Source: an uncultured delta proteobacterium
GTDB lineage: Bacteria > Desulfobacterota > WTBG01 > CAIYCZ01
DNA: 64,000 nucleotides
Reading direction: 5' to 3'
Assembly: GCA_963803975.1 (NCBI GenBank)
Contig: CAWDOY010000047.1
Coordinates: 112,096 to 176,095, forward strand
Of this stretch, positions 7,921-27,672 are shown piece by piece; within the stretch, counting starts at the first letter, position 1; every line of letters begins with the position of its first letter. The notes under the pieces were generated by a model, which was given only the letters and a program-made list of their open reading frames with translations, searched no databases and was not told the DNA's origin. The position numbers and the translations under genes were made by a program.

Positions 7921-8349
7921 TTACAGATTATACAGTTCCTCATCGTTCAATAATACAAATCCGGCTTTGGAAAGCAATGTCACTGCTTCAGGCATTTCCT
8001 CCACATCAAAAATCATTACCGCCTGATTTTTATCTTTAATGACAAACCCGTAGGCATCTTCGATATTGATTTCCTTCCGGGCAAATACTTCTGCGATCTT
8101 CTGCAGGCCGCCGGGCTGATCATCCATGAGGACGGCAATGACCTCCCGCAGATACGCAGTGAGCCCTTTTGCCCGCAACGTTTCAGTGGTTTTTACCGGA
8201 TCGTTGACGATCAGTTTAATAATGCCAAAACCCTGAGAAGTGGCGATGGTTATGGCCCGCATATTAATATGTGCGTCTTTAAGAATTTTTGTAAGCCGCT
8301 CGAGCCGTCCCGGTTTGTTCTCTGCGAAAATACACACCTGCTGCGCCAT
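7921..8349 (-). CDS. ACT-domain protein (PaaK-associated tandem ACT)
   Basis: ~140 aa with two ACT-like halves (VCIFAENKPGRLERLTKIL... and IAVLMDDQPGGLQKIAEVF...). Sits immediately downstream of a PaaK gene. 45% identical to the ACT gene at 23372..23803. Confidence 0.8.
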   Translation of the reverse strand: MAQQVCIFAENKPGRLERLTKILKDAHINMRAITIATSQGFGIIKLIVNDPVKTTETLRAKGLTAYLREVIAVLMDDQPGGLQKIAEVFARKEINIEDAYGFVIKDKNQAVMIFDVEEMPEAVTLLSKAGFVLLNDEELYNL

Positions 8350-8430
8350 GGCAAACCTCCCTGTTCCCCGTTAGGCGTTCTTGATCAATTGCCTTCAGTG
8401 TACTATATTCCCCTGTGAAAAATTATCAAA

Positions 8431-8516
8431 AAGGGTCCAGGGATTCGAGGGTTCATGGGTTCTAGTCTTTTTTAAAACTTTCACTTGGCCACTTGAATCC
8501 CAGACCACTTGACTCC
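8431..8516. repeat. Intergenic imperfect long hairpin built from degenerate GGGTTC/GGATTC hexamer repeats
   Basis: gggtccagggattcgagggttcatgggttc ... cacttgaatcccagaccacttgactcc, in the PaaK-ACT spacer. Confidence 0.4.
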
Positions 8517-8520
8517 TTTA

Positions 8521-9825
8521 TCATCCCCACTGTTTCCGGTTGTCAAGAACCCGGACCGCCTTACCTTCGCTCTTGGGCAAGGTATCCGGCTCCACCAGCT
8601 CCACGCGGGGCGTCACCAGAAGCTCAGACCTGAGATCGTCAATAATCCGCTTGCGCACGCTCTCAAGATGCTTTAAATCCCCGGTAAACATCTCTGCCCG
8701 TATCTCCGCTTTAACGGTCATAAAATCATTGTCGTCAATGGTGTCAAGAATAATCTGGAAATTGGACCCGACTTCCGGGATGGCCATGAGCGCCTTCTCA
8801 ATCTGAATGGGGAACATATTCACGCCTTTCACAATGAGCATGTCATCGGTTCTTCCTTTGATGCGGCTTATGCGGCGATGGGTTCTGCCGCAGGGACAGG
8901 GCTCCGGATAGACAAAAGCCAGATCACGGGTGCGGTAGCGCAATAGCGGCATGCCTTCACGCCGCAGGCTGGTGAATACCAGCTCCCCTTCAACACCATC
9001 CGGCACCGGCTCAAGCGTGGCAGGATCAATCACCTCCAGGATGTAGCTGTCTTCCCAGGTATGCAGGCCGTTCTGGCACGGGCACTCAAAAGCAACCCCG
9101 GGGCCATTCATCTCGGAAAGGCCGTAGGAGTTGTATGCCTTGACGCCGTATGCCTGTTCTATCCGCTGCCGTGTCTCTTCGGTATGGGGCTCAGCGCCGA
9201 TGAAGGCAATCTTAAGCTTCAGGTCTTTTTGCGGATCTATGCCCATAGTGCGGAACGTCTCAACGAGATGCAGGCCATAGCTGGGGATGATGTGGATAAC
9301 CGTGGTATCAAACTCCTGCATGAGCATGATCTGGCGCTTGCTGTTGCCGGCACCGGCAGGAATCACCATGGCGCCAAGCTTTTCCGCTCCGTAGTGAAAG
9401 CCCAGACCCCCGGTAAACAGGCCGTAGCCCATCATATTCTGGAAAACATCGCCCGGCCGCACCCCGGTCATGTACATGCAGCGGGCAACGAGTCCCGCCC
9501 ATTCATCAATATCACGGGCAGTGTGGAAAATGACGGTCGCCCGCCCGGTTGTTCCCGATGAGGAGTGCATCCTGACTATCTGTTCCCGGGGGACGGCAAG
9601 AAACCCGTAGGGGTAGTGCTCCCTGAGGGTATCCTTGGTGATGAAAGGGATGCGCCGGATATCATCCAGGCCTTTTATTGTATCGGGTGCTATCCCCTCC
9701 TGTTGAAAGAGTGATTGATAGTATGGTGAGTTTCCTGCCTGCTCCACGGTTTTCCGCAGCAGCAAGAGCTGCATCGTTTCAAGCCCGTCTCTGTCGAGCG
9801 TTTCAATATCCTTATTCCAGTACAT
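8521..9825 (-). CDS. paaK: Phenylacetate-CoA ligase (PaaK family, adenylate-forming)
   Basis: SSSGTTGRATV P-loop, YGLSE, GELVFTSL and RYRTRD motifs, C-terminal [13 protein letters not shown]. Probable start at the internal Met MYWNKDIETLDRDGLE. Confidence 0.85.
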   Translation of the reverse strand: MYWNKDIETLDRDGLETMQLLLLRKTVEQAGNSPYYQSLFQQEGIAPDTIKGLDDIRRIPFITKDTLREHYPYGFLAVPREQIVRMHSSSGTTGRATVIFHTARDIDEWAGLVARCMYMTGVRPGDVFQNMMGYGLFTGGLGFHYGAEKLGAMVIPAGAGNSKRQIMLMQEFDTTVIHIIPSYGLHLVETFRTMGIDPQKDLKLKIAFIGAEPHTEETRQRIEQAYGVKAYNSYGLSEMNGPGVAFECPCQNGLHTWEDSYILEVIDPATLEPVPDGVEGELVFTSLRREGMPLLRYRTRDLAFVYPEPCPCGRTHRRISRIKGRTDDMLIVKGVNMFPIQIEKALMAIPEVGSNFQIILDTIDDNDFMTVKAEIRAEMFTGDLKHLESVRKRIIDDLRSELLVTPRVELVEPDTLPKSEGKAVRVLDNRKQWG

Positions 9826-9932
9826 TACGCGAGACCTCTCTGTTTTCTGTTCCGCTATAAAACTCCCGGTCATTTCCGGTATTGTTAGACCATTACCGGT
9901 TTGTCGCATGCCCCCGCTGCTTGACCATACGG

Positions 9933-10505
9933 TTACAATTTATTGCGATAGAGAGCGGGGTCAACGGCCCGCACCATTGCCTGAATATCTAAACCACCGT
10001 CAAGAAAGGTGTTTATTTTTTCTGCCAGGAGCTGCGGCGCAGTCACAATATCAGAGTAGTTTACCGGAAGCATTGCAAAGCTCCGGTGGTTATGAATCCA
10101 GTGGTTGAATTTATTGAGCTGGCCTTTAAAAAGCTCGGCCAGCTTGTCATCACTCAGGTTTGCGCCTGTTTTCCCTGATCTCTGCAGCATTCTTTTTTGT
10201 GACGCAAGAACTTCGTAGATGTTTCGCTCCATGAAAATGACCCGGTATTCATATTCCAGCGGCAGGTCATATAACAGGCTGTAAATCACTTTTACCACCT
10301 TGCCCCGAGCTGTCGGCACCCATGAGGGATCGTCCCGGGTTTTTTTGACCGGCTCAAATTCGTAATATCCTTTCGGGTTATCCTCGTCCCGGGTGCGCTG
10401 GTGATCGGTGAGCACGGGGATGCCGCCCGCTTCAATCATCTGCATCATCATTGATGTGCCGGAGCGGGGAAGGCCTGATACAATCGTAACAAACGATAGA
10501 TTCAT
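9933..10505 (-). CDS. Sulfotransferase-family protein (PAPS-binding P-loop)
   Basis: 5'-PSB-like motif SGLPRSGTSMM and a 3'-PB-like region. ~190 aa, Stf0-like size. Confidence 0.65.
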   Translation of the reverse strand: MNLSFVTIVSGLPRSGTSMMMQMIEAGGIPVLTDHQRTRDEDNPKGYYEFEPVKKTRDDPSWVPTARGKVVKVIYSLLYDLPLEYEYRVIFMERNIYEVLASQKRMLQRSGKTGANLSDDKLAELFKGQLNKFNHWIHNHRSFAMLPVNYSDIVTAPQLLAEKINTFLDGGLDIQAMVRAVDPALYRNKL

Positions 10506-10592
10506 CGAAGGTTATCCTTTACTGGTTGTTTGTTTTCCTGTAGCTCCCGCGAGACTGCCAGGGGGCGTTAAACGAAAGAATTGCTGCCGCCC

Positions 10593-11441
10593 TCAGGCAG
10601 AGAGCCTGCCTTTTATAAAAGGGCTGGTAAGCAGCGCGGAGATCATTGATATGATACAGAACCATACCAGCCACCAGTCTGTTCCACAGATAAATGAATG
10701 CCGCGCCGGATAGGCAATGCTGATTGAAGCAACCGGACCCGCAGCGCTCAGCGGCTGCTCAAGGGGATGCATAATAACATCTGCCGCGTCTGTGCCCGGG
10801 CGTTTGGCGCTGACGCGCATGAAACCTGTGCCTATTGCCAGCTGCTTTACAATCTGCTGATCGCCCACCTGAAATTTGAGCAGATGGGTTCCGTCCTGTA
10901 CCGGCTGAATCGTCCAGCAGATCTCTTTCCGGCTTGCAATGCGCATGGGGCCGGCAACTATTCGCGCGCCGGGACGGGCATCAAGGGTTACGGCCGGCCA
11001 GTGTTCAGAAGCATTGTTCAGTTTCAGATTCACGACTACCGGCGCATCTCCCAACTGCAGGGGACGGGCCTGATACCACAGGCCCATCTGGGCAAGAATG
11101 AGGCTCAAGGGTATACTCATAATCAGCACCGGTATGAGTGAATATACGAACAGTTTAACGGAGCACAGCATCAGCCGTGCCTCGGACTTCATGGTAACCG
11201 CTATATTGTCCCGATAGAGGCGAACCGCCAGCAGACTGGCTTTGATATCATCAATGGTGCGGGTTAAAGCGCGCTGGTTTGAAGTGTACTTAAATATAAT
11301 AAATAACGGGATCCCGAGAACTGCCGAAATAATCGTGATTGAAAGCCAGCCCGGAACCATGGCAATCGGGGCCAATACCAGGCCGCAGACAGTGTTTGCT
11401 GCCGAGTTCACTATGAAAAGAAAATAAATCAATCCGCTCAT
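10593..11441 (-). CDS. Integral membrane protein of unknown function (4 TM helices plus a periplasmic domain)
   Basis: Hydrophobic segments at the N- and C-termini, no recognisable motif. Start overlaps the stop of the upstream small ORF (ATGA). Confidence 0.5.
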   Translation of the reverse strand: MSGLIYFLFIVNSAANTVCGLVLAPIAMVPGWLSITIISAVLGIPLFIIFKYTSNQRALTRTIDDIKASLLAVRLYRDNIAVTMKSEARLMLCSVKLFVYSLIPVLIMSIPLSLILAQMGLWYQARPLQLGDAPVVVNLKLNNASEHWPAVTLDARPGARIVAGPMRIASRKEICWTIQPVQDGTHLLKFQVGDQQIVKQLAIGTGFMRVSAKRPGTDAADVIMHPLEQPLSAAGPVASISIAYPARHSFICGTDWWLVWFCIISMISALLTSPFIKGRLSA

Positions 11442-11629
11442 TACTCAATATAGCCCAAACCGCGCAGCTGTTCTGATACTGCCTTATCATCATCAGGTGA
11501 CGCCTCAAGCAGGGCCAGCTCTTTTTCAATAACAGAGGATACAAACTCTTCAAAACTGCTGTACCCCGCAGCTTCCGCAGCCTTTTTTGCCCGCTCATAC
11601 AGCTTGCTGTCAATTTTTACTTTGGTCAT
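11441..11629 (-). CDS. Small (62 aa) ribbon-helix-helix-like protein
   Basis: MTKVKIDSKLYERAKKAAEAAGYSSFEEFV resembles CopG/ParD-type RHH N-termini. Translationally coupled to the downstream membrane protein. Confidence 0.4.
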   Translation of the reverse strand: MTKVKIDSKLYERAKKAAEAAGYSSFEEFVSSVIEKELALLEASPDDDKAVSEQLRGLGYIE

Positions 11630-11646
11630 GGCTCGCTCCCTGGCAA

Positions 11647-13677
11647 TTATACTTTAAATATATTTCGTCCGGTCATGGTCGCCGGCACCTTTACGCCGAA
11701 TGCCGTCAATATTGACGGCGCAAGGTCAGTAAGGGCCGACGCAGGGCTTATGATGTCCTGATTGCTGAACAGTATGCCCGGCAGTTCAGAGGAATCCATG
11801 CAGTGGTCAGCTGCCCAGGCTGAATCATTATCTGAAAGTATCTCTTTGGGCATATCTCCCAGGCATGATTTCCACGAGCAGCGGAAATCGCGGCTGTAGC
11901 CGATAATTAGATCCGGCGCATACTTCTGCTGCGGCCCTGAATATATCTTGTCTGCTCTGCGCGCTTTGCAGATAACGGCCCTGCCGTCGCTATCCCGCAC
12001 TGCCTCAAGCTTCTGCACAAGCTCTTCCAGAAGGGTTTCCCGCTCTGCAGCGGGGTCCACAATCCCGTACTGCTCCCGTCCTCTCTGGTTAAGATAGAGG
12101 CTGTTGATGCCAAGGCCGTAGGCCCTGGTTTTTGACCAGTCAACGTCAGAAAACAGTGACGTGCACTCAGGCGGACCCAGGTACCCGTTATCCCGCAGCC
12201 AGGTGTTCAAGTTGAACTGGCGCCTGAAGTTTGCAAATCCGTGATCACTCATGATAATGATATGCGCCGTATCACCGTACCGCTTCATGAGCGCTCCGAC
12301 CAGCGCGTCCATCCTGCCGTAGAGATCCTGCACATGGGTGAAATATTTTTGCGCTTCAGCTGCCGTGCGGTAGGGATGTTTTGCCGCGGTGTCCCACCAC
12401 AGCATGTGGGACTGCATGTCGGTACTGGAAAAATAAAAAAAGAGCAGCCCGTCATCATAATTGCGCAGCGCGTAGTCAAGCAGCTGCATGCGCTCCTGCA
12501 GCACATACTCTGCCTGCCGGACAAATTCATCATCACTGAAAACCTTGTTTGAGAGGGCCTTATGGTCTTCCTGAAAACCCGTATTGTAAAAAAGCCCCAG
12601 CTGCTGAGACAGCTCCGGAAGAAATGCGGGCGGCTCGGTAATTTTTATGGCCGGGTCGTTAGGATCAGTATTTATGGGGGTAACATACAGCCTGAAGTTG
12701 GGGGCCGCTTCCTGCAGATAAAACCGGCAGATGCCGCTTATTTTTTTGTCAGGCACCAGCGCGGGGGTTGAAAGGCTGTACTCGATTCGCACCCAGGGGC
12801 TCCATTCACCCTGCTTCATAAGTATCGTCTGCTGCTGAATTTCGACGACAGCAGCCCTGTCGTTGCGGTTGCGATGCACGATAAATTCTATGGTTGCGTC
12901 CTGCGGTTTTTTAAGAAAGGTATTTTTTGGGCCAATTAAAATAAGCGGCCGGGAGGTTTCGCCGTCAAAATATATTTTTGACCGCCTCCCTCCCCCTTCG
13001 CTGACGGGTTTCTCCGGGCCGTCTTCGGCAAAGTGCTGGTAGGTTCCATAAGAGCCCAGCAGGTCAGGGGTCCCCATTCCTGCAAGGCAGCGGTGATTCC
13101 CATGCGTTGAGGAACTGGGCGGGTAGTTTGACGGCAGATCGTAAAACGTTGAGGGAATACCCGCTGCATCAAGATACTCCCAGAACGGCACGCCTTCGCG
13201 CTTCAGCACGGTCCGGGGAGGGGTGTGATTGAAGGGCCAGAAATCAAGCTGCATTTTATGCTCGCCCAGTTCCAGGTAACCGACACCGGGCATTGTTTCA
13301 GCAGCTGCAAAAAAAGGTAACGCCTGTTTTTCCGGATTGCGGTGGATAAAATCAAATATACCGTGGGAGCCGGGGCCCGCGCCGTTGATAAAATTTGCCC
13401 AGGCAACCGGGCTTTGCGGAGGGTTGCTGGTAGCAAGCGGCCGGAATCCATTATTCTTTCTCAGCCGGTCAAGATTGGGCAGCCGGCCCTGCTCCATCAA
13501 ACGGATGCAGAGCAGCGGGTCCATGCCGTCAAAACCTATGACAATAACTTTTTTGCCCGCAACCCTGCGCGGCTTTTGTTCCTGCGCGCTTGCTGCGCGG
13601 GAGCTTATTCCAGCTGCCAGCGCTGCTGCAGCCGCGGTCGACTGTTTTATAAAATCCCGTCTGGTAAGATGTTTCAT
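11647..13677 (-). CDS. Alkaline phosphatase-superfamily protein (type I phosphodiesterase / nucleotide pyrophosphatase family) with a Tat signal
   Basis: Tat motif TRRDFIKQSTAAAAALAAG. GFDGMD metal-site motif, PISPVAW-like PQSPVAWANF, SDHGF. Paralog of 13690..15798. Confidence 0.75.
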   Translation of the reverse strand: MKHLTRRDFIKQSTAAAAALAAGISSRAASAQEQKPRRVAGKKVIVIGFDGMDPLLCIRLMEQGRLPNLDRLRKNNGFRPLATSNPPQSPVAWANFINGAGPGSHGIFDFIHRNPEKQALPFFAAAETMPGVGYLELGEHKMQLDFWPFNHTPPRTVLKREGVPFWEYLDAAGIPSTFYDLPSNYPPSSSTHGNHRCLAGMGTPDLLGSYGTYQHFAEDGPEKPVSEGGGRRSKIYFDGETSRPLILIGPKNTFLKKPQDATIEFIVHRNRNDRAAVVEIQQQTILMKQGEWSPWVRIEYSLSTPALVPDKKISGICRFYLQEAAPNFRLYVTPINTDPNDPAIKITEPPAFLPELSQQLGLFYNTGFQEDHKALSNKVFSDDEFVRQAEYVLQERMQLLDYALRNYDDGLLFFYFSSTDMQSHMLWWDTAAKHPYRTAAEAQKYFTHVQDLYGRMDALVGALMKRYGDTAHIIIMSDHGFANFRRQFNLNTWLRDNGYLGPPECTSLFSDVDWSKTRAYGLGINSLYLNQRGREQYGIVDPAAERETLLEELVQKLEAVRDSDGRAVICKARRADKIYSGPQQKYAPDLIIGYSRDFRCSWKSCLGDMPKEILSDNDSAWAADHCMDSSELPGILFSNQDIISPASALTDLAPSILTAFGVKVPATMTGRNIFKV

Positions 13678-13689: not shown

Positions 13690-15798
13690 CTATGAGATCG
13701 TTTTCTGCCCGGGGCCGTCCACCTGCAGGGATTTCCCGTCCATGTGGGAAGGAACCGGAACCCCGAACATTTCAAGTATGGTCGGCCCGATGTCCATGAG
13801 CCGCGGGTGCTCGTCATGAATCATGCGATTGCTGAACAGAATGCCCGGAACCAGTGATTGATCAATGCAGTGATCGCCGCTCCAGGCTTTTACATTATCG
13901 TGAACGACCCGGCCGGTTACTTCTCCAATGGCAGTTTCCCATGCCGCCCGGTAACCCGCATTATATCCGACGAGAAGGTCCGGAGCATCCTGTTTGTAGG
14001 GGCCCTGATAAATCTTCATGGCATTATAGACCCTCTTTATTACCGGCTGTCCGTGCAGGGGATCAATAAAACCTTGAAGCTTTTCGGCAAGTTCCTCCCG
14101 GAGCTGCACTGCTTCTGCCCCGGAATCTACCATCCCCTGCGCTTCTCTGCCCTTAAGGTTTAGATAGATGCCGGAAAGGCCGATGGCAAAGGCTCTGGTC
14201 TTTGACCAGTCAACACCTGCCAGATTTTTCCTGCCGCGCCCATTCTCAGTGAGCGACAGATAGCCGTTTTCCTCAAGCCACCGGTTTAAGTCTATGCCGT
14301 AGCGAAAGGAGTTAAACCCGTGATCGGAAATCACCATCAGCAGCGTGTTGCGGTCACGGCATTTTTTCATCGTCTCTCCGAGTATTCTGTCAGCATTCCG
14401 GTAAATCTTTTCAATTTCCGGTTCTGCTGCCGGCTGATAGCTGCCCCGGTGCGCGGGATGTTCGGGGTCAAGCTGGCGCCAGAAAGAGTGCTGTACGCGG
14501 TCAGTGCCGTCAAACACACACACGCACAGTCCCCGGCCGATATTGTCAAGGGCATCAAAGAACATGCTCACCCGCTCCCGGTCGGTCTGCAGGCACTGCT
14601 CAATAAACTGCTCATCACTGATGCGCTGTTCATTCAGCGCCCAGCTGTCCTCAGCCAGGCCCAGGGTTGCATACCGGCCCTGACGCTTGGCCAGGTACGT
14701 TGCATAGACCTGCGGATGGCTGATGGGCATTACCGGTTTATCCGGGTCAATGTTTATCGGCGTCACATAGAGCTTGAAATCCGGCTCAGCTGCTATCAGC
14801 AGAAACCTGCAGATGCCCCGCACCTTCATCCCCAGAGAGGCCTTGAAGGTAACCGGTATCCAGTCAGAGTATTGTCCTGCGATGAGGGCACAGGTTGCGC
14901 CATTGAGATGCAGCACCGCGCTCGTAGCATCCTGAATGGTTATTTCAAAAGGGCATTTCAGGACAACGCGTGCTTTAAGCATGGGATCGTGCGGCCCTGA
15001 CAGCTCTGCTTTGATACGGTTGCCGGTTCTCTCTACCTGATGTACTTCCCCGCCGGTATTCTCGCCCGCGCCGGCAGCGCTGGTCGTGTAAAAGGAAAAT
15101 ATTCCCTGGGATCCGCGCAGATCCGGGGTGCACATTGCCGCAAGCTGCAGGCCGTAAAATTGTTCCGGCGGAAAGGTAATGGGAACGCGGATTATGTTGC
15201 TGAAGATGCCATGCTCGCCGAGCGTCTTCCAGAAGGGAACACCTTTTCTCAGCAGACGGATATCACCGCGCCCGAGAGGAATCTGATAGCGTCCCACTGA
15301 CAGGGTGCGCAGCGGCCCCTTAATATCGGTAGAGCTCAGCTTGGGGGCATACGTTTTACGATCGCGCGTGAGAAAGTCAAAGATATTATGTTTGCCCGGA
15401 TTTACCCCGGTCTGAAATGAAGACCAGGCAACCGGTGAAATGGGGGGAATAGTGGACAGCAGCGGTTTAAAGCAGCCCTGTTCCTGCAGCTTTGCAAAAT
15501 TGGGCAATTTACCCTCATCCAGCAGTTGCGTGGTCAGCGTATAGTCCATGCCGTCAAATCCAATAACAATTGCTTTTTTGATGCGGCTGCGGGCATACAC
15601 TCTGCGGAACCGGATACTGCGCACGATCGTCCGGATCGGCCAGGTCACCAGTATTATAAGCGCAGAGACCAGTGCGGTAAATAAAACTAAAAATGAGCCG
15701 CCAACCGCAAAACCGGCACCCGGACCAATATAGGCGCTTGCAGAACCGGGAAGCAGTGCACTTAATAGTACTGCAAGAGCGACCAGCAAATATTTCAT
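13690..15798 (-). CDS. Alkaline phosphatase-superfamily protein (type I phosphodiesterase / nucleotide pyrophosphatase family), membrane-anchored paralog
   Basis: Two N-terminal TM helices, then IVIGFDGMD, PPISPVAWSSF, VISDHGF. ~35% identical to 11647..13677. Confidence 0.75.
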   Translation of the reverse strand: MKYLLVALAVLLSALLPGSASAYIGPGAGFAVGGSFLVLFTALVSALIILVTWPIRTIVRSIRFRRVYARSRIKKAIVIGFDGMDYTLTTQLLDEGKLPNFAKLQEQGCFKPLLSTIPPISPVAWSSFQTGVNPGKHNIFDFLTRDRKTYAPKLSSTDIKGPLRTLSVGRYQIPLGRGDIRLLRKGVPFWKTLGEHGIFSNIIRVPITFPPEQFYGLQLAAMCTPDLRGSQGIFSFYTTSAAGAGENTGGEVHQVERTGNRIKAELSGPHDPMLKARVVLKCPFEITIQDATSAVLHLNGATCALIAGQYSDWIPVTFKASLGMKVRGICRFLLIAAEPDFKLYVTPINIDPDKPVMPISHPQVYATYLAKRQGRYATLGLAEDSWALNEQRISDEQFIEQCLQTDRERVSMFFDALDNIGRGLCVCVFDGTDRVQHSFWRQLDPEHPAHRGSYQPAAEPEIEKIYRNADRILGETMKKCRDRNTLLMVISDHGFNSFRYGIDLNRWLEENGYLSLTENGRGRKNLAGVDWSKTRAFAIGLSGIYLNLKGREAQGMVDSGAEAVQLREELAEKLQGFIDPLHGQPVIKRVYNAMKIYQGPYKQDAPDLLVGYNAGYRAAWETAIGEVTGRVVHDNVKAWSGDHCIDQSLVPGILFSNRMIHDEHPRLMDIGPTILEMFGVPVPSHMDGKSLQVDGPGQKTIS

Positions 15799-19712: not shown

Positions 19713-20612
19713 TTAAAATTCTTTCAGCTTGCTTGCCTCGCTCACGCCGAAAATGCCGCTCGGCTTTACAAACAGAACCAGCAGCAGCACTAAAAGCGCT
19801 ATGGCGTCTTTGTAGCCAGAGGAAATGAGCCCTGCCCCCAGTGATTCAAGAATTCCAATGAGCAGCCCCGCGACTACCGCCCCGACGCCGTTTCCCAGTC
19901 CCCCGAGCACGGCTGCCGCAAATCCTTTCAATGCCAGGATGGCTCCCCGGTCATATTCCATAAGGGCAACCGGCGTTATGATAATCCCGGCAGTGGCTCC
20001 CAGCGCCGCGCTCAGGGCAAAGGATAAGAGCACCATTTTTTTAACACTGATGCCCACCAGGCTTGCCGCGGTGGGGTTTACGGCGCAGGCGCGCATCGCT
20101 TTCCCCAGCATGGTAAAGTTGAAAAATCCCGCCAGAATGATGACCACCACAAACATGATCCCCAGAATCCAGAGGGTTTGCGGCAGGATGGTTGCGCCGA
20201 ACAGATAAAACGGCTCTTCCCCTGAAAAGTGCGGCAGGGTATAGGTTTCCTTTCCCCAGAACAGCATGGCCGAGCCTTTCATAATGATTGAGCCGGCAAG
20301 CGTTATCATGATCAGGATCAGCACCGACGGCCGCTTGAGCGGATAGATGGCAAGACGCTCAAACAGTGCGCCGATGAGTGTTACCATGATGACAGAAAGC
20401 GCAAACGCCGCGATCATGGGAATTTTCAGCACCGTGGTAAACCAGACCATGAACATGCCGCCAAGCATGACAAATTCACCCTGGGCAAAATTTATAATGC
20501 CGGTGGCATTGTAAATAATATTAAACCCCAGCGCTACCATTCCGTAGATGGTGCCTATGGTTATACCGGTCAATAGAAACTGCAGTATCTGACTGAAAAG
20601 CGACATGCACAA
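19713..20612 (-). CDS. livH: Branched-chain amino acid ABC transporter permease LivH
   Basis: ~300-aa multi-TM permease of the LivH type (GxxGxxG-rich C-terminus). Confidence 0.8.
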   Translation of the reverse strand: MCMSLFSQILQFLLTGITIGTIYGMVALGFNIIYNATGIINFAQGEFVMLGGMFMVWFTTVLKIPMIAAFALSVIMVTLIGALFERLAIYPLKRPSVLILIMITLAGSIIMKGSAMLFWGKETYTLPHFSGEEPFYLFGATILPQTLWILGIMFVVVIILAGFFNFTMLGKAMRACAVNPTAASLVGISVKKMVLLSFALSAALGATAGIIITPVALMEYDRGAILALKGFAAAVLGGLGNGVGAVVAGLLIGILESLGAGLISSGYKDAIALLVLLLVLFVKPSGIFGVSEASKLKEF

Positions 20613-20741
20613 CTACTCCACCCTGAGAAACAGATACCAGTCACCGGGGCTCCCCGCGTCCCTGCGGACAGGTGCCCCGCCAGTCGGAAGACGTCTAAAA
20701 ATCTGCACGATAGTAACTCATTATGACGTCTGTGTAAATTA

Positions 20742-20786
20742 CAAAAAAAGAGGCTAAACCCTAAATATAAAACCGGTGTAGCCTCT
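20742..20786 (-). terminator. Hairpin plus T-run between livK and livH (partial terminator or attenuator)
   Basis: Minus strand AGAGGCTA-n22-TAGCCTCT followed by TTTTTTT. Confidence 0.5.
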
Positions 20787-20857
20787 CATATGCTGCAGTC
20801 TAATGTTCACGGTTCAGGTATCGTGAAGCTTTAAACCTTAAACGTGAAACCTGCACA

Positions 20858-21999
20858 TTACTGTGCCGGCAAAAACTTTCCGCCCTTTATGGTGATCATT
20901 TCAAACGCATCTTTGGTGAGACCGGTATGATCTTCGGGTGAGTAAGTTGAAAACACCGCCGGTGCCGACAAAGTTTTTAGTGTTTTCAATATAGTCCCGG
21001 ATCTTTGCCCGGTCCGGCCCGACTGCGCGCAGGGCGGCGATCACCAGGGTAAGCGCATCATAGGCATGCCCGCCAAAGGTGCTCACATCGTTTTAAACTT
21101 TTCCTCATAGTCCTTCTTGTATTTCTCCAGCAAAGCGCTCTCTGCGGGTGGTCAGCCGGCAGCGAGTCCACCACCAGCAGCCTCCCGGCCGGGAACAGCA
21201 CCCCGTCTGCTGCATCGCCGGCAGCTCGCGCATATTTGATATTGCCAAACCCGTGGCTCTGAAACAGCGGTATGGTCATCCCGAGCTGTTTCCTGTTTTT
21301 GATAATGGTTGCCTGACCGGGCACAATGGACCAGTTGACAATTGCCTGAGCATCGGTGCCCTTGATCTTGGTCAGCTGGGCCGTCATATCGGTATCTTTC
21401 GGCCCATAGGTTTCATCCGCGACAATGGTAATGCCGTACTTTGGAGCAAGCAGGGTGAGCTGCTTTCTTCCTTCCATGCCGAACCCCTCGGTGGCGGTAA
21501 TGATAGCAACCTTGGAGATATTCATTTCTTTCATCTTCTCATAAATCCTGATTGCTGCATCGCTGTCTTTCTGCGGGGTTTTGAAGACCCACTTTCGCAC
21601 CGGGTTAACGATCGCCTCCGCAGCCGCGCATGATACGAGCGGCACCTGCGCCTTTTCTACGATGGGTATGACCGCCATGGTTGTCCCGCTCCTGGTGGGG
21701 CCGACAATGGCCAGCACGTTGTCTCTGTTGATGAGCTTCTGGACCGCCATGACAGCCTTTGCTTCTTCTCCCACCGTGTCTTCAATGATGATCTCCAGCG
21801 GGTGCCCGTTGATGCCGCCCTGGGCATTGACCTGCTCCTGGATCATCTTAACGGTGTTGCGCTCAGGTTCCCCAAGCCATGCCGCAGGACCGGTTATGGC
21901 GAATACCGCCCCGACCTTGTACGGCTCCGCTGCCATAACAGAACCGGCAGCGCCGAGTATCCATACCCCTAAGACAATAACCCCAAAAACTTTTTTCAT
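20858..21999 (-). CDS. livK: Branched-chain/aromatic amino acid ABC transporter substrate-binding protein (LivK-like), copy 1. Two frameshifts near the 3' end.
   Basis: Signal peptide MKKVFGVIVLGVWILGAAGSVMA. ~75% identical to copy 2. The C-terminal 60 aa (STFGGHAYDA...TGGVFN / YSPEDHTGLTKDAFEMITIKGGKFLPAQ) lie in two other frames. Confidence 0.7.
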
Positions 22000-22111
22000 T
22001 GTACCCTCCTCCTCGCGTGTTGTTGTTTAAGTATCCCCTCATGTATGTAAAACCGGCCGTCAGTCTTCAGCACAAACCCTGCTTCAAAGCCGGCTGCTAA
22101 GCACTGCAGGC

Positions 22112-23251
22112 TTATTTAACCAGCGCAAATGCGCCGCCTTTTACCGTGTACATCTCCAGCGCATCCTTATCAAGTCCCACATGATTGTCGGCAGAATAAT
22201 TAAAAACGCCGCCGGTGCCGACAAAATTTTTCGTGTTTTCGATATAGTCTCTGATCTTTGCCCGGTCCGGCCCCACAGCGCGAAGCGCTGCAATAACCAG
22301 GTGTATTGCATCATAGGCATGGCCGCCAAAGGTGCTCACGTCCGACTTAAAGCGGCTTTCATAATCTTTCTTGTATGTGGCAAGAAGCGCCTTCTGCGGA
22401 TGGTCTGCCGGCAGCGCTTCAACCATGAGCAGCCTCAGGGCCGGGAACATGAGCCCGTCTGCTGAATCGCCTGCGGCCCGGGCATATTTTATGTTGCCGA
22501 ATCCCGGGCTCTGGAACAGCGGTATGCTCATCCCGAGCTGCCGCCGGTTTTTAATCACCGTGGTCTGGCCGGGAACAATTGACCAGTTCACCAGCGCCTG
22601 AGCATCGGTGCCCTTGATTTTGGTGAGCTGTGCCGTCATGTCGGTATCCTTGGGCCCGTAGGTCTCATCTGCCGCAATCGTAATGCCGTACTCCGGAGCA
22701 AATCGCTTGAGCTGCTTGCGGCCTTCCATGCCATAGCCGTCAGTGCTGGAAATAACCGCCACGCTGGTGATGTTCATCTCTTTCAGCTTATCGTAGATCT
22801 TGAGCACGCCGTGGCTGTCATTCTGGGCGGTCTTGAATACCCATTTCCTGACCGGCCGTACTATTTCCTCTGCTGAAGCACACGAAATCAGCGGCACCTG
22901 CGCTTTCTCCACAATCGGGATGACCGCCATGGTGGTGCCGCTGCGTGTCGGCCCGACAATGGCGAGCACGTTGTCCTTATTAATGAGCTTATTTACCGCA
23001 AGTACGGTCCGGGTTTCCTCGCCCACCGTATCTTCCACAATGATCTGCAAGGGGTGACCGTTAATGCCGCCCCGGGCATTGATCTCTTCTTCAACCATTC
23101 TAACCGTATTGCGCTCGGGCTCCCCGAGCCATGAAGCCGGCCCGGTTATGGCGAATACGGCGCCGACGACGTAGGGCTCTGCTGCAAAAGAAACTGGTGA
23201 TAGAGCGGTGAGCACCGCCAGTGCTGCAAACAATAAAAATAGCTTTTTCAT
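22112..23251 (-). CDS. livK: Branched-chain/aromatic amino acid ABC transporter substrate-binding protein (LivK-like), copy 2
   Basis: Starts at the internal Met MKKLFLLFAALAVLTALSPVSFA. Periplasmic binding protein type I fold signature. Confidence 0.85.
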   Translation of the reverse strand: MKKLFLLFAALAVLTALSPVSFAAEPYVVGAVFAITGPASWLGEPERNTVRMVEEEINARGGINGHPLQIIVEDTVGEETRTVLAVNKLINKDNVLAIVGPTRSGTTMAVIPIVEKAQVPLISCASAEEIVRPVRKWVFKTAQNDSHGVLKIYDKLKEMNITSVAVISSTDGYGMEGRKQLKRFAPEYGITIAADETYGPKDTDMTAQLTKIKGTDAQALVNWSIVPGQTTVIKNRRQLGMSIPLFQSPGFGNIKYARAAGDSADGLMFPALRLLMVEALPADHPQKALLATYKKDYESRFKSDVSTFGGHAYDAIHLVIAALRAVGPDRAKIRDYIENTKNFVGTGGVFNYSADNHVGLDKDALEMYTVKGGAFALVK

Positions 23252-23371
23252 AGTACCCCCTGTTCTTGAATGAGTCGTGATTGCAGCGGCCCCACAAAAC
23301 CCCCGGCCCCTGGGGATACACCATAAACAACGGGTCACGGGCCACGGGTCACGAGGCACGTCGTTCACTCC

Positions 23372-23803
23372 CTACAGGCAGTATACTTTTTTTCCCTCCA
23401 GCACGGTAATACCTTTGCTGGTGAGCGTTTTAATGGCTTTATCGATTTCGTCAAAGCGGAAAATGATGACCGCATTGTCAGAGCTGCGCTCGACAAATGC
23501 ATACATATATTCCACGTTGGTGCCTTCCTTCTGCAGAAGGTCAAGGATGTGCGCCAGTCCGCCCGGCCGGTCATTCACCTCTACTGCCACAACCTGGGTC
23601 ATGCTGACGGTAAACTGGTTGGACTTGAGCACGCCAATTGCCTTAGCGCTGTCATTTACAATCAGGCGCAGGATGCCAAAGTCTGACGTATCGGCAAGGG
23701 AGAGCGCCCTGATATTTATTCCTGCTGCGCCCAGAACCCTGGTGACTTCAGCAAGACGGCCTGATTTGTTCTCTAAGAAGATGGATATTTGATCTACTTT
23801 CAT
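23372..23803 (-). CDS. ACT-domain protein (PaaK-associated)
   Basis: [35 protein letters not shown]... Two ACT halves. Immediately downstream of paaK. Confidence 0.8.
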
Positions 23804-23820
23804 AAGTAATTCCTCCCGTT

Positions 23821-23899
23821 ATGGAGTTACGGAGTGCAGGAGTTGCGGAGTTAAAAATATAAACTCCAAAACTCTCCAACTCCACAACTCATCAACTCG
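23821..23899. repeat. Intergenic imperfect long hairpin built from degenerate GGAGTT repeats
   Basis: ggagttacggagtgcaggagttgcggagtt-aaaaatataa-actccaaaactctccaactccacaactcatcaactc. Confidence 0.5.
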
Positions 23900-25203
23900 T
23901 TATATTTTCCTCTTGTCAATCACCCGTTTGGCTTTGCCCTCGCTGCGCTGGATGGTCTTCGGCTCTACCAGCTTACACTTACAGGTAACGCCAAACATCT
24001 CTTTTATATCCTTTTCAATCCGCTTTTCCAGCCGCTCCAGCTGCTTGATCTCATCTGAGAATACTTTTTCATTCACTTCCACCTGCACCTCGAGCGTATC
24101 AAGATTGCCTTCCCGGTCCACGATGAGCAGGTAGTGCGGCTCCACCCCTTCAATCTGCATGAGAACGCTCTCAATCTGCGAAGGAAATACATTAACGCCC
24201 CTGATGATCAGCATGTCATCGGTTCTGCCGGTGATCCGCTGCATGCGCACAAAAGTTCTGCCGCATTTACATATTTCCGGGTAGAGAACTGATATGTCCC
24301 GGGTGCGGTAGCGTATCACCGGGAAGGCCTCTTTGGTGATCGAGGTAAATACCAGTTCGCCCTTCTCGCCGTAGGGCAGCGCCTTACCGGTAGCAGGATC
24401 TATAATTTCAGGAATGAAGTGGTCTTCAAAAACGTGCAGCCCCTTCTTGGCTTCCAAACATTCGCTGGAGACGCCCGGGCCGATCACTTCGGTCAGCCCG
24501 AAAATATCGATGGCGTCAATGTTAAATTTCTTTTCTATCTGCTCGCGCATGTTCTCTGACCAGGGCTCTGCGCCAAAACAGCCCACCCGCAGCTTGAAAT
24601 CCTTTGCCGGGTTTAATCCCATTTCTTCCGCCACCTCACCAAGATGCAGTGCATAGGAGGGGGTGCAGGTGATAGCGGTCGGCCCGAAATCCTGCATGAT
24701 GATAATCTGCCGCTTGGTATTGCCCCCGGATATCGGTATAACCGACGCGCCCACCTTTTCCGCACCGTAGTGCAGCCCGAGCCCGCCGGTGAACAGGCCG
24801 TAGCCGTAGGCATTATGCACGATGTCGCCCCGGTGCACACCGGCACAGAACAGGGTCCGCGCTATGAGCTCAGCCCAGGTATCAATATCGCGCTTGGTAT
24901 AGCCGACCACGATCGGTTTTCCCGTGGTTCCCGAAGAAGCGTGAACCCGCACCACCTGTTCCATGGGAACGCTGAACAGGCCAAAGGGATAATTGTCCCG
25001 CAGGTCATTCTTGATGGTGAAGGGCAGAAGCTGCAGATCCTTCAGGTTTTTACGTGTGACGGCTTGACGCCCAGCTCATCAAACTTCTTCTTGTAAAAAG
25101 GTACTGTCTCGTACACCCGCTCAACGGTTGCTTTAAGCCGTTTGAGCTGCAAAGCCTCAAGTGCTTCGCGCGGCAGGGTTTCAAATTCTTCATTCCAGAT
25201 CAT
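23900..25203 (-). CDS. paaK: Phenylacetate-CoA ligase (PaaK). Frameshift in an A-run near codon 53.
   Basis: [41 protein letters not shown]. The N-terminal 53 aa ([51 protein letters not shown]) are in a different frame. The shift is in gtaaaaacctg. GGGAGG RBS. Confidence 0.8.
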
Positions 25204-25299
25204 AATAGACCTCCCGTTAAAAGTTTAAAGTCTAAACCCGACGTTACTAAACGCTAAATAAAAACTTTAGAATTGAAACATATTACGAATTTCAGGATT
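25204..25299. repeat. Intergenic degenerate TAAAC/GTTTA repeat tract between iorB and paaK
   Basis: gtttaaagtctaaacccgacgttactaaacgctaaataaaaactttagaattgaaac. Confidence 0.3.
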
Positions 25300-25887
25300 T
25301 CACCTTGTGTTTCTGCCCAGCATAAATGCCTTGATATTAACATCAACCAGTTTCGGTGGAAGCATTGAGGAAATGACTTCCTTCCACAGGTTCTCATCCA
25401 CACCAAAATGTTTGGACAGCGCCCCCAGAAAAGCCACATTCAACGCCCGGGCGTTTCCCGCCTGTTTGGCAATATCCAGGGCATCAACAATCTCAACCCG
25501 TGAGAAGCGCTCGCGCAGCAGCTCCGGCAACTGCTCCGGATAGGTATCGACACCCAGGGTAACGGAGGGCGGCAGCACCTTCTGCTTGTTGACAATGAGC
25601 AGCGCATCGCTGCGCAGAAAATCAAGGTAGCGCACGGACTCGAGCAGCTCGAAGGAGAAGAGCACGTCTGCATCACCTTTTTTAATAAGGGGCGAATAGA
25701 CTTTCGGCCCGAACCGGACATGGCTGCTGACGCTTCCCCCGCGCTGCGCCATGCCGTGCACTTCGCTCTTCTTGACATCATGTCCCGCGCGCATCATCAC
25801 TTCCGATATGATTTCGCTGGCAAGGATAACACCCTGTCCCCCCACGCCCACCATGAGAATATTCTGTACCCGGTCAGTTGTTTCCAT
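25300..25887 (-). CDS. iorB: Indolepyruvate:ferredoxin oxidoreductase beta subunit
   Basis: MVGVGGQGVILAS pyruvate/ketoisovalerate oxidoreductase gamma-type fold, ~195 aa. Start overlaps the iorA stop. Confidence 0.85.
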   Translation of the reverse strand: METTDRVQNILMVGVGGQGVILASEIISEVMMRAGHDVKKSEVHGMAQRGGSVSSHVRFGPKVYSPLIKKGDADVLFSFELLESVRYLDFLRSDALLIVNKQKVLPPSVTLGVDTYPEQLPELLRERFSRVEIVDALDIAKQAGNARALNVAFLGALSKHFGVDENLWKEVISSMLPPKLVDVNIKAFMLGRNTR

Positions 25888-27672
25888 CTTTTTTCCTTAT
25901 CGCACCTTTCCTGCAAAGCTGTGAACAGAGTTCGCATCCGATACACAGACTCGGGTTGACGAATGCCTCACCCTTCTTTTTCTTCAGTTCTGCCTGGTCC
26001 TGCGGCAACAGCGTGACCCATTCAAGAGCCGGACAGCCGAGCTGCAGGCAGGCTTTGCAGCCGATGCATTCACTGCTCTCCACATATAACAGGGGCCGCT
26101 GCGCCCCCTTTTCGACCCGCCGGTACAGCACACAGGGAGAGTCGGTAATGATGACCGAGGGCTCAGGCCGGTTGAGCTCCTTTTTGAGGACTGTATTAAG
26201 TTTTTTCAGGTCAAAGGGATCAACCTTTTTGACGTTCTTTATGCCCAGCGCTTTAACAAGTTTTACATAATCAACTTTGGTTGTTTTTTCTTCCCTGATG
26301 GTCATGCCGGTACCGGGGTGGTCCTGCCTGCCGGTCATGGCCGTGGTCCAGTTATCAAGTATTATAATCGTGCAGGCGCCGCGGTTATACGCCACATCAA
26401 GCAGCCCGGTAATACCGGAGTGGAGAAACGTTGAATCCCCGATCACTGCCACCACGCGGCCAAGCGCCGCGCTCCCCAGCGCCTTGTCCAGGCCCATGGC
26501 GTGCCCTATGCTCGCCCCCATGCAGATACAGGTATCAACTGCTTTGAGCGGCGGCAGGCAGGCAAGCGTGTAGCAGCCGATATCACCGGCGACAAACACT
26601 TTCAGTTTATTCAGAGCATAAAACAGCCCCCGGTGCGGGCAGCCCGGACACATGGTGGGCGGCCGCGGCGGAAGATAGGGCAGCGCAGCTCCTTTTTTTT
26701 CTGCCCCGGCGGCCCCGCCGATGCCCTGCTCCGCAGTGCCCGGATCAAATTCCCCGCAGGAGGGAAATACCTCTTTGCCGATTATCTCGATGCCGAGCGC
26801 CTTCACCTGCTCTTCAAAAAACGGGTCAAGCTCCTCAAAGGCGTAGAGCTTTTTCACCTGGCGGGCAAATTCTTTAATCTTCTTTTTGGGAAGGGGATAC
26901 ACCATGCCCAGCTTCAGAAATGAATAGCCGGGGAAGGCCTCCCGTGCGTACTGGTAACAGGTGCCGCTGGCGATAATGCCCACGGACGGGTCCTGCAGTT
27001 CCACGCGGTTTTCCGGCAAAATCTTCAGCAAAGGCTTCCAGATCCTTTATGCGCTGCTCCACCAGGGGGTGGCGCTGCCGCGCGTGGGCAGGGACCATAA
27101 CATATTTGCTCGGCTGTTTTTCCAGGGCGGGCGCGGCAGGGCGCTGCTGCGGCTCAGAGAGCTCTACAATCGATTTGGAATGGGAAACGCGCGTGGTGGT
27201 GCGCACGAATACCGGCGTGTCAAAGCGCTCGCTCAGCTCGAAGGCCAGTTTTAATATAGTCCTTGGCCTCCTGGCTGTCAGCGGGCTCCAGCATGGGGAC
27301 TTTTGCAAACTTTGCGTAATTCCGGTTGTCCTGCTCATTCTGTGAGCTGTGCATCTCCGGGTCATCCGCGGTCACAATGACCAGCCCGCCCTTGATGCCG
27401 GTGTAGGAGACCGTAAACAGCGGGTCTGCCGCTACATTCACCCCCACATGCTTCATGGCGGCAAGGGCCCTGCGGCCGCCGATGGCTGCGCCGGTGGCTA
27501 CCTCCAGCGCGACCTTTTCATTGGGCGACCACTCGGCATAAACGCCTTCGTAGGTGGCCATGTTTTCCAGTATCTCGGTGCTCGGCGTTCCCGGATAGGC
27601 GGTTGCCACTGCCACGCCAGCCTCATACGCACCCCGCGCAATTGCTTCATTTCCCGTGAGAATAACTTTCAT
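25874..27672 (-). CDS. iorA: Indolepyruvate:ferredoxin oxidoreductase alpha subunit. Two frameshifts.
   Basis: N-terminal pyrimidine-binding module (MKVILTGNEAIARGAYEAGV...). TPP-binding GDSTFLHSG...NRGACTIIILDN. Two C-terminal 4Fe-4S motifs CIGCKAC..C and CIGCELCSQLC. The parts lie in three frames (27220-27672, 26874-27365, 25874-27031). Confidence 0.8.

Follow-up and report, generated by a model that had tools for sequence, protein, structure and literature searches.

The nearest described counterpart of the locus analyzed here is the iorAB-paaK-ACT-livKKHMGF-paaK cluster of Geobacter sulfurreducens and Geobacter metallireducens, which we take to be the GSU1729-GSU1739 region of G. sulfurreducens. 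In a 2009 genome paper, "tryptophan (iorAB-paaK)" appears as an operon whose 5' sequence is conserved, and Geobacter iorAB-paaK is counted with the biosynthetic operons (PMC2700814). In Bacteroides, indolepyruvate:ferredoxin oxidoreductase (IOR) genes likewise adjoin a gene for an AMP-forming, PaaK-type arylacetate-CoA ligase (PMC13285125). The passages that bear on the pathway in Bacteroides and in M. maripaludis propose a direction from aryl acid to arylacetyl-CoA, arylpyruvate, and amino acid (PMC13285125; PMC4162585); the descriptions of these systems mention no linked ABC importer, no ACT-pair proteins, and no multiple ligase paralogs. The HAAT-family CouPSTU and HbaEFGHI systems of R. 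palustris place transporter genes of "branched-chain amino-acid type" beside aromatic-acid CoA ligases, but they are catabolic systems of an aromatic-compound degrader and have no IOR. Finally, ABC-transporter operons commonly show an intercistronic stem-loop behind the binding-protein gene.

The stretch of DNA that we analyzed (the window; 64,000 nucleotides) shares features with each of these systems. Its first 11 genes have the order and orientation of the Geobacter cluster, including two livK genes and the terminal second ligase, and the IOR adjoins a PaaK-type ligase as in Bacteroides; the importer, ACT-pair proteins, and multiple ligases not described for Bacteroides or M. maripaludis are all present. 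Unlike the Geobacter cluster, it carries a third paaK-ACT pair and a five-gene AlkP/sulfotransferase insert. Families were assigned with Pfam and NCBIfam profiles, and promoters and terminators were called solely by consensus matching. The features, in order of transcription, are as follows.

27773..27805, minus strand: predicted intrinsic terminator, AAGGGTGAGTG-ATAAAA-CACTCACCCTT then a T-run (ΔG -18.3 kcal/mol), ending an upstream porin-like gene
25874..27672, minus strand: iorA, IOR alpha subunit (POR_N, TPP_enzyme_C, and Fer4 on fragments)
25300..25887, minus strand: iorB, beta subunit (POR, PF01558; NF005322 267 bits, cut-off 237)
23900..25203, minus strand: paaK1, IOR-adjacent PaaK-type aryl-acid CoA ligase (AMP-binding and AMP-binding_C_2; clade A)
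23372..23803, minus strand: ACT1, stand-alone ACT-domain-pair protein (ACT_8, PF19571, E 5e-28)
22112..23251, minus strand: livK1, HAAT-family periplasmic binding protein (Peripla_BP_6, PF13458)
20858..21999, minus strand: livK2, paralogous binding protein (Peripla_BP_6; three indels in the final 300 nt)
20742..20787, minus strand: terminator-like hairpin after livK2 (9+3 bp stem, U7 tail)
20710..20738, minus strand: promoter-like block TTTACA-17-TACTAT (consensus scan), directly behind the hairpin, ahead of livH
19713..20606, minus strand: livH-like permease (BPD_transp_2, PF02653; 124 bits against a LivH cut-off of 379)
18653..19606, minus strand: livM-like permease (BPD_transp_2, PF02653; 165 bits against a LivM cut-off of 366)
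17879..18646, minus strand: livG-like ATPase (ABC_tran PF00005 and PF12399)
17136..17873, minus strand: livF-like ATPase (ABC_tran PF00005)
15825..17126, minus strand: paaK', transporter-adjacent PaaK-family ligase (AMP-binding and AMP-binding_C_2; clade B)
13690..15798, minus strand: module gene 1 (PDE1), alkaline-phosphatase-superfamily protein (PF01663; N-terminal hydrophobic segments)
11647..13677, minus strand: module gene 2 (PDE2), Tat-signal protein (PF01663; TIGR01409)
11441..11629, minus strand: module gene 3 (orf62), 62-aa protein (no Pfam or NCBIfam match)
10593..11441, minus strand: module gene 4, 282-aa membrane protein (no Pfam or NCBIfam family match)
9933..10505, minus strand: module gene 5, small sulfotransferase-like protein (weak Sulfotransfer_3, PF13469, 37 bits, cut-off 27)
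8521..9825, minus strand: paaK'', third PaaK-family ligase (AMP-binding and AMP-binding_C_2; clade C)
7921..8349, minus strand: ACT2, second ACT-pair protein (ACT_8, PF19571; PDB 2F06, E 4e-16)

The 18 genes from 27672 down to 7921 are all encoded on the minus strand and follow the order that the original prediction had given. Its family calls were matched by Pfam for IorA, IorB, the three ligases, both ACT proteins, the Liv set, and the two PF01663 proteins; the IOR, PaaK, and ACT core and a Liv/HAAT-type ABC importer with duplicated binding proteins (two Peripla_BP_6, two BPD_transp_2, and two ABC_tran proteins) had been correctly recognized. The RHH label given to the 62-aa protein was not confirmed by the profiles, and the spacers are not short throughout, 8 of the 17 measuring 87-251 nt (the widest named, between livK2 and livH, is 251 nt). 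The co-directional run also exceeds the claimed stretch, with minus-strand ORFs from about 723 to 29792. The predicted terminator at 27773-27805 is the 5' boundary of the locus, while a scan for a hairpin plus T-run found no terminator downstream of ACT2.

With 722 bits, repaired IorA (598 aa) exceeds the TIGR03336 cut-off of 651, and the end of iorA overlaps iorB by 14 nt. PaaK1 is 434 aa after a single-base repair, and its intact ortholog in the related sequence L002, at 640.7, falls short of the TIGR02155 cut-off of 646.3. The other two ligases fall under that cut-off of 646, PaaK' at 459 bits and PaaK'' (likely start Met29 within a 462-aa ORF) at 474. PaaK', which starts 9 nt past livF, is 61% identical to its G. 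sulfurreducens ortholog and matches the B. thetaiotaomicron ligase structure 4R1L (E 5e-104). As predicted, the three paralogs are divergent, with pairwise identities of 39-49%, and in a neighbor-joining tree they sort into separate position-specific clades, of which clade C (paaK'') is confined to relatives of the window; this pattern fits different roles or substrates. ACT2 is 38% identical to ACT1. The two binding proteins share 75% identity, as measured on the intact L002 orthologs; the livK1 start was placed by tblastn with the L002 ortholog.

The fusion of these genes had been called unusual, but it is ordinary: the 11 genes stand in identical order in G. sulfurreducens, and the full gene set was found in 29 of 80 genome loci, spanning Geobacterales, Desulfuromonadales, Desulfobulbales, and Nitrospirota (two phyla). 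At least two livK genes are present in 12 of these 29, and the liv genes adjoin a paaK gene in 55 of the 80. Because gene order is kept across phyla, the arrangement is not chance. Judged from these comparisons, the locus belongs to a widespread, vertically conserved cluster of anaerobes (anaerobic Desulfobacterota, Geobacterales, and Nitrospirota) consisting of iorAB, paaK, ACT, a HAAT importer (one or two binding proteins, two permeases, and two ATPases), and a second paaK. By the same comparisons, the third paaK-ACT pair is a lineage-specific extension added to this cluster.

The AlkP, RHH, membrane, and sulfotransferase genes had been counted as members of the system, and the entire 20 kb could be read as one transcription unit, a novel supra-operon in which these genes cooperate with IOR, PaaK, and Liv and attenuation at the hairpin is the sole control. 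Consistent with such a unit, all genes are co-directional, the gaps flanking the five genes are short to moderate (26 nt ahead of PDE1 and 107 nt ahead of paaK''), and L089, from a related species with a PDE2 89% identical, has the insert at the identical position. However, in the near relatives L007 and L010, which have another layout, paaK'-paaK''-ACT is contiguous, so the five genes in the window represent an insertion, found neither in these relatives nor in any of the 80 other genomes. Furthermore, they are conserved together as an independent module in unrelated contexts. In a survey of 80 metagenome loci anchored on the 282-aa membrane protein, loci with enough flank contained PDE1 (18/18), PDE2 (27/27), and orf62 (58/60), with the sulfotransferase gene 5 in 16 of 51; a PaaK neighbor occurred in just 2 of 29. 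The module also occurs with no accompanying ior or paaK genes in Desulfobacteraceae and Planctomycetota. Module genes 1 and 2 are 36% identical, and an AF2 model of gene 2 (pLDDT 78.6) has PafA, PhnA, and NPP as its closest folds. Gene 5 has relatives in 4018 clusters, and 6 of 10 long relatives are PF01663-TPR-Sulfotransfer_3 fusions, which ties the module genes to one another. We conclude from these neighborhoods that the five genes are a self-contained, unrelated module splitting the aryl-acid cluster.

The hairpin after livK bears on the same question. It was correctly predicted as the only one: a scan found no second intergenic hairpin plus T-run within the array, which would suit a single unit. 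It is stable (ΔG -19.3 kcal/mol, z -5.0; 0 of 200 shuffles equally good), its stem is invariant in L001, L002, L007, and L089, and in L010 both arms end in an altered, still complementary base pair. A hairpin plus T-run recurs at 18 of 54 LivK>LivH junctions, compared with 0-10% of other junctions, and those of different lineages have unrelated stem sequences. In Geobacter, by contrast, the livK-livH spacer is 87 nt with no hairpin plus T-run. As in textbook ABC operons, the stable hairpin directly follows the last binding-protein gene; here it differs in its U7 tail and the conserved promoter-like block that comes next. This block is invariant among aligned relatives, whereas its flanks have diverged, which makes one transcription unit with attenuation only doubtful and at least two units as likely as one attenuated unit. 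With the U7 tail, it also makes termination plus re-initiation as plausible as transcript stabilization or attenuation. Another predicted promoter-like site (consensus match) lies at 8429-8402, ahead of ACT2, and likewise speaks against a single unit. Taken with the distribution of the insert, we regard the supra-operon as very improbable. Instead, transcription would start past the 27.8 kb terminator, the hairpin would give the upstream genes, binding proteins included, a higher transcript level, and the block behind it would probably restart transcription of livHMGF-paaK'.

We were concerned by six single-base frameshifts, two in iorA, one in paaK1, and three in livK2. Insertions of an A near 27261 and of a G at 27014 spread iorA over three frames, a 1-base deletion at ~25047 disrupts paaK1, and the reading frame of livK2 breaks at 21134, 21090, and 20943. 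These could mark a decaying pseudogene array in which the three genes are truly inactivated in this strain: all six fall within 7 kb while the 12.7 kb downstream has none, and the stretch in which they concentrate (20.6-28 kb) is also where substitution density against L001 and L002 peaks. Against such decay, substitutions in the broken genes are mostly synonymous (20:3 in livK2 and 6:1 in paaK1), and indels are also dense in the adjoining intergenic DNA and affect the unrelated upstream porin-like gene and a DAHP synthase gene 12 kb off, which is also split. At 98.6-98.9% identity to the window, L001 and L002 both have intact paaK1 and livK2. Several indels fall within short homopolymer runs, and the sister contigs have their own, different frameshifts at homopolymers, a pattern typical of long-read consensus noise. 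We consider true inactivation quite improbable; the six frameshifts are most likely assembly errors.

The role of the cluster is probably tied to aryl acids; we infer from context in which direction the pathway runs, what the transporter binds, and which substrates the ligases take. In the proposed route, the ABC system would take up free aryl carboxylic acids (for example phenylacetate, indole-3-acetate, and 4-hydroxyphenylacetate), the paralogous AMP-forming ligases would trap them as CoA thioesters, and IOR, using reduced ferredoxin and CO2 in its reverse direction, would convert the arylacetyl-CoAs to arylpyruvates, from which transamination would give Phe, Trp, and Tyr. The ACT-pair proteins probably sense amino acids and act as partners of the ligases. 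AMP-forming arylacetate-CoA ligases beside IOR indicate biosynthesis rather than degradation (PMC13285125), and aryl acids enter aromatic amino-acid synthesis via IOR in M. maripaludis, according to work cited in PMC4162585. AMP-forming ligases in the locus speak for uptake of free acids, and the amino-acid uptake originally suggested is not indicated by the transporter proteins, which score far under the Liv equivalog cut-offs. Binding proteins of COG0683 annotated as "branched-chain" mostly take other ligands, aromatic acids included (PMC3223731). The solved structures nearest to the binding proteins are mixed, with R. palustris aromatic-acid binders, among the best for LivK1, but also S. 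pneumoniae LivJ (4GNR), and the carboxylate-binding Arg197 and Ser222 of CouP are not conserved in LivK1, which has Pro and Ile instead; these features count against aryl-acid import.

The opposite direction would make this a catabolic locus, in which aromatic or branched-chain amino acids are imported and transaminated, arylpyruvates are oxidized by IOR to arylacetyl-CoA for further degradation or for energy, and PaaK adds free arylacetates to the same pool. The original prediction had leaned toward this reading. The HAAT family of the transporter would fit, as would 4GNR, a true branched-chain amino-acid binder, being one of its best PDB relatives. Yet with amino acids as the substrate taken up, two to three AMP-forming ligases would be superfluous, and G. 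sulfurreducens, for which growth on aromatic compounds or amino acids is not known, carries this cluster too. The locus encodes no downstream degradation genes and no aminotransferase, the latter counting against the proposed route as well. IOR is reversible and runs oxidatively in amino-acid fermenters, but these couple the oxidoreductase to phosphotransacylase/kinase or ADP-forming ligases, which save ATP, and not to AMP-forming ones (PMC13285125). We consider catabolism unlikely. With moderate confidence, we favor a widespread cluster with an inserted module, in which aryl-acid uptake would lead through CoA ligation to reductive carboxylation under hairpin and promoter control, with the frameshifts as assembly errors. 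Accepting this, the uncharacterized inserted module would be the sole new element of the locus.

The minus-strand genes run continuously from iorA at 27672 down to the second ACT gene at 7921, and co-directional open reading frames (ORFs) extend beyond this row, from about 0.7 to 29.8 kb. ORF listing, translation and Pfam matches agreed with the originally proposed gene order, strand and family assignments; one label was not confirmed. The features are as follows.

27672-20858, minus strand: iorA and iorB (indolepyruvate:ferredoxin oxidoreductase, IOR), paaK1 (the IOR-adjacent ligase), ACT1, and the binding-protein genes livK1 and livK2.
20787-20742, minus strand: intergenic hairpin after livK2.
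20606-15825, minus strand: livH, livM, livG and livF (permeases and ATPases) and paaK' (the transporter-adjacent ligase).
15798-9933, minus strand: five-gene module, comprising PDE1 and PDE2 (two PF01663 proteins of the alkaline-phosphatase superfamily, each ~700 aa; Pfam), a small ORF (62 aa), a membrane protein (282 aa) and a sulfotransferase-like protein (190 aa; weak Sulfotransfer_3 match in Pfam).
9825-7921, minus strand: paaK'' (the third ligase) and ACT2.

The IorA fragments matched the Pfam families POR_N, TPP_enzyme_C (TPP-binding) and Fer4 (2x[4Fe-4S]), and the repaired protein scored 722.3 bits against the TIGR03336 equivalog cut-off of 650.9, covering the full model (1-595). Directly downstream, with a 14-nt gene overlap, iorB encodes a POR gamma-type domain protein (NF005322, 267.2 bits; cut-off 237). 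ACT1 and ACT2, which are 38% identical to each other, are tandem ACT pairs of the ACT_8 family (PF19571) of ~140 aa with full-length matches (E 5e-28 and E 4e-23), and ACT2 also matched PDB entry 2F06 (E 4e-16). Neither the 62-aa protein nor the 282-aa membrane protein matched a family in Pfam or NCBIfam; the former had been labelled "RHH" because of its sequence appearance alone, and this label is unconfirmed, as no RHH model matched in Pfam (E <= 0.01) or NCBIfam. The spacers had been described as short throughout, which does not hold: they range from overlap up to 251 nt and are at least 87 nt in 8 of 17 cases.

As given, iorA lies in three reading frames, paaK1 in two and livK2 in four segments. 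Deletion of two surplus bases, one A near 27261 and one G at 27014, yielded a 598-aa IorA, and inserting one base at 25047 yielded a 434-aa PaaK1. The single-base frameshifts cluster between 20600 and 28000 (two in iorA, one in paaK1, three in livK2 and probably one in a porin-like gene near 27960), and the window resembles a long-read consensus with residual indels. We compared the locus with two near-identical metagenome contigs in which it recurs, L001 (98.9% identity) and L002 (98.6%). Both have intact paaK1 (434 aa) and livK genes (379 aa); most differences within the broken genes are silent (synonymous to other substitutions 20:3 in livK2, 6:1 in paaK1 and 10:5 in iorA); and neighbouring intergenic DNA is likewise indel-dense. 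The porin-like gene is hit too, as is a DAHP synthase gene (FXD domain plus DAHP_synth_1; 38738-39807), which is split at about 39.14-39.28 kb, and the frameshifts of sister contigs differ, falling in iorA and the membrane gene in L001 and in livF, PDE1 and paaK'' in L089, a locus from a related species. On these grounds the six indels in iorA, paaK1 and livK2 are probably consensus errors of the assembly. We judged true pseudogenes, reflecting real decay in this strain, and programmed frameshifting to be less likely than assembly error.

The original prediction regarded the joining of IOR, ligases, ACT proteins and importer as an unusual fusion. PaaK' has thousands of relatives, and around a PaaK' ortholog of about 61% identity G. 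sulfurreducens carries iorA-iorB-paaK-ACT-livK-livK-livH-livM-livG-livF-paaK, matching the window in all 11 genes and in their order. We surveyed 80 loci, taking one genome per species and annotating by BLASTP against the window's proteins. The full set lay on a single strand in 29 of them, 12 of which had at least two livK genes; liv genes adjoined a ligase in 55 of the 80, and ior-paaK-ACT-paaK occurred without the transporter in eight. Carriers include Geobacteraceae, Desulfuromonadales, Desulfobulbales, Syntrophales and Thermodesulfovibrionales (Nitrospirota). At 45 junctions in the genome loci (L009-L088), an ACT-pair gene came next after a PaaK gene; the spacer had a median length of 30 nt. 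In a 2009 comparison of Geobacter genomes, "tryptophan (iorAB-paaK)" is one of the biosynthetic operons listed as having a conserved 5' sequence (PMC2700814); our literature search by Geobacter locus tags and gene combination returned this genome paper only, and no functional or transcript study of the locus. With the same order in G. sulfurreducens and the full set in 29 of 80 loci, the linkage cannot be called unusual, and by gene content and order the combination of IOR, PaaK-type ligases, ACT proteins and "Liv" importer is no new fusion but a standard locus that spans phyla. We conclude that the window holds a new member of a widespread known locus, extended in this lineage by a further paaK-ACT pair and carrying an unrelated module as an insertion.

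All three ligases have the PaaK-type combination of AMP-binding (PF00501) and AMP-binding_C_2 (PF14535) domains. Against the PaaK equivalog TIGR02155, whose cut-off is 646.3 bits, PaaK1 (scored as its L002 ortholog) fell just short at 640.7 bits, and PaaK' (459.3) and PaaK'' (474.4) fell far below; PaaK' also matched the solved PaaK structures 2Y27 (E 1e-109) and 4R1L (E 5e-104). All three are PaaK-family ligases, of which PaaK' and PaaK'' cannot be filed as phenylacetate-specific. Their divergence, as predicted, is real: pairwise identity is 39-49%, and in a neighbour-joining tree of 132 ligases they belong to separate clades that follow position, namely IOR-adjacent (40), transporter-adjacent (73) and third copies (4). 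The three clades are old and position-specific. Two ligase types thus belong to the locus as a long-established, fixed part of it, and the third occurs solely in the window's relatives.

Five genes lie between paaK' and paaK''. In the related loci L007 (PaaK' 81% identical) and L010, no gene separates paaK' from the paaK''-ACT2 pair, and the five genes of the window are therefore an insertion, which is present at the same position in L089 (PDE2 89% identical). A Desulfobacteraceae metagenome-assembled genome (MAG) carries PDE-PDE-membrane-sulfotransferase amid unrelated genes and a Planctomycetota MAG carries PDE-PDE-small-membrane; in both groups the module occurs without ior or paaK. We took a census of 80 metagenome loci, using the membrane protein as anchor and counting only those with enough flank: all 18 assessable loci had PDE1 and all 27 had PDE2, the small ORF was there in 58 of 60 and the sulfotransferase in 16 of 51, and a PaaK gene neighboured the module in only 2 of 29, both from the window's own lineage. 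The sulfotransferase family comprises 4018 clusters, and among ten long relatives six have the fused architecture PF01663-TPR-sulfotransferase, a link between the module genes. The sulfotransferase scored 37.0 bits against PF13469 (cut-off 27) over residues 88-169 only, and an N-terminal "PRSGTS" loop was recognized by eye only. Sequence searches of the PDB gave no useful match for PDE2 or the sulfotransferase, the latter having no PDB relative.

Both PDE proteins matched PF01663 (PDE2, E 7.5e-29; PDE1, E 2.1e-32). PDE2 has a Tat signal, and residues D50, S89, D420, H424, D478, H479, D624 and H625 are invariant (alignment A6), from which we infer a putative bimetal site. The AlphaFold model of PDE2 (pLDDT 78.6) had PafA, PhnA (phosphonoacetate hydrolase) and NPP as its nearest folds (E ~4e-6, 10-13% identity), and its resemblance to all three is only distant. 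Judged by its occurrence across genomes, the module is a self-contained, widely conserved, uncharacterised system separate from ior/paaK. It may be a widely distributed envelope system, with two enzymes of the alkaline-phosphatase superfamily targeted by Tat or to the membrane and with or without the sulfotransferase, that was recruited here into an aryl-acid operon; we consider this unlikely. Under such recruitment one possibility is that it would release aryl acids from phosphate- or sulfate-conjugates before uptake, and the 20-kb array would then work as one unit instead of being an accident of insertion. As a self-contained system, the module could merit separate study.

The importer has the complete five-component HAAT architecture (PF13458 x2, PF02653 x2, PF00005 x2 and PF12399; Pfam), and its two binding proteins are 75% identical. 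Scores against the Liv equivalogs were far from the cut-offs (LivK1, 81 versus 477; LivH, 124 versus 379; LivM, 165 versus 366). In R. palustris, most "branched-chain" binding proteins of COG0683 have ligands of other kinds, aromatic acids among them (PMC3223731), and CouP is a COG0683-type protein of this kind (PMC3610893). This importer is probably mislabelled as a "branched-chain amino-acid transporter". The best PDB relatives were mixed, comprising R. palustris aromatic-acid binders (3SG0, 4DQD, 3UK0 and 3TX6/4JB0) and the S. pneumoniae LivJ (4GNR), and we rejected their ranking as a predictor of the ligand. We also mapped the ferulate-binding residues of CouP onto LivK1 as potential proof of aromatic-acid binding and dropped this approach, since the residues differ: CouP's carboxylate ligands are absent from LivK1.

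A stock terminator scan missed the hairpin after livK2 because its loop is larger than canonical, and we wrote a more tolerant scan. The hairpin has a 9+3 bp stem, a 14-nt loop and U7 (ΔG -19.3 kcal/mol, z -5.0; 0/200 shuffles fold as well), and it is the sole intergenic hairpin with a T-run within the array, as had been claimed. Its stem is invariant in L001, L002, L007 and L089, and in L010 the outer closing pair is changed on both arms and still complementary. A hairpin with T-run occurs at 18/54 LivK>LivH junctions, with unrelated stem sequences, compared with 0-10% at other junctions. Directly after the hairpin, the livK-livH spacers of L001, L002, L007 and L089 share an invariant block of ~60 nt (TAATTTACAC...ATAATGAG.TA.TATCGTGC), within which TTTACA-17-TACTAT (20738-20710) matches a promoter consensus; the relatives' flanks have diverged. 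The block is promoter-like; alternatively, a regulator may bind there. The original prediction was that the hairpin attenuates expression of the permeases relative to the binding proteins. Its recurrence at LivK>LivH junctions supports the idea that the site matters; however, a conserved promoter-like block lies directly behind it, and termination followed by re-initiation would be at least as likely as simple attenuation. Upstream, a predicted terminator of textbook form at 27805-27773 (11-bp stem, 6-nt loop, T-run, ΔG -18.3) separates iorA from the porin-like gene. A sigma-70-like site at 8402-8429 (TTGATA-16-TATAGT, 10/12 matches) sits within the 171 nt between paaK'' and ACT2, and ACT2 may therefore have its own promoter. 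A single transcription unit for the whole row would have to span the internal hairpin, the promoter-like block behind it and this site, which are matches to consensus patterns only. An Rfam scan of the whole window returned tRNA-Pro only, and therefore neither the DNA ahead of iorA nor the 251-nt livK2-livH spacer contains a known riboswitch or leader.

The product of the porin-like gene (27829-29213) has a signal peptide, a coiled-coil region and a probable beta-barrel, and matched no Pfam family; after a change of frame the gene runs on to a C-terminus typical of barrels (...GFVELILFY). G+C is ~0.42 at 1-8000 and 48000-50000 and ~0.52 elsewhere in the window. The left low-G+C segment begins beside tRNA-Pro(GGG) (340-416). 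Most of its ORFs lack a Pfam match, and it also encodes a BON-domain lipoprotein and a Flavodoxin_5 protein. The segment is common to L001 and absent from L007 and L089, and may be an acquired island.

AMP-forming ligases run towards the thioester. The most economical pathway using every enzyme of the locus would begin with import of aryl acids, continue with their activation to CoA thioesters and proceed to reductive carboxylation by IOR; transamination would follow, by an enzyme encoded elsewhere. PaaK and ACT seem to form a conserved functional pair. The ligase beside a Bacteroides IOR has been confirmed to be an arylacetate-CoA ligase, and it has been argued that IOR-ligase pairs function, as they do in methanogens, in the biosynthesis of aromatic amino acids (PMC13285125; PMC4162585). 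The main rival is that the locus is catabolic. We hold the aryl-acid salvage mechanism with moderate confidence, because the PDB relatives of the binding proteins are mixed and the CouP carboxylate ligands are not conserved. If salvage is true, many sediment and subsurface anaerobes could save the costly shikimate pathway, and their scavenging of fermentation-derived phenylacetate or indoleacetate would constitute a cross-feeding link.
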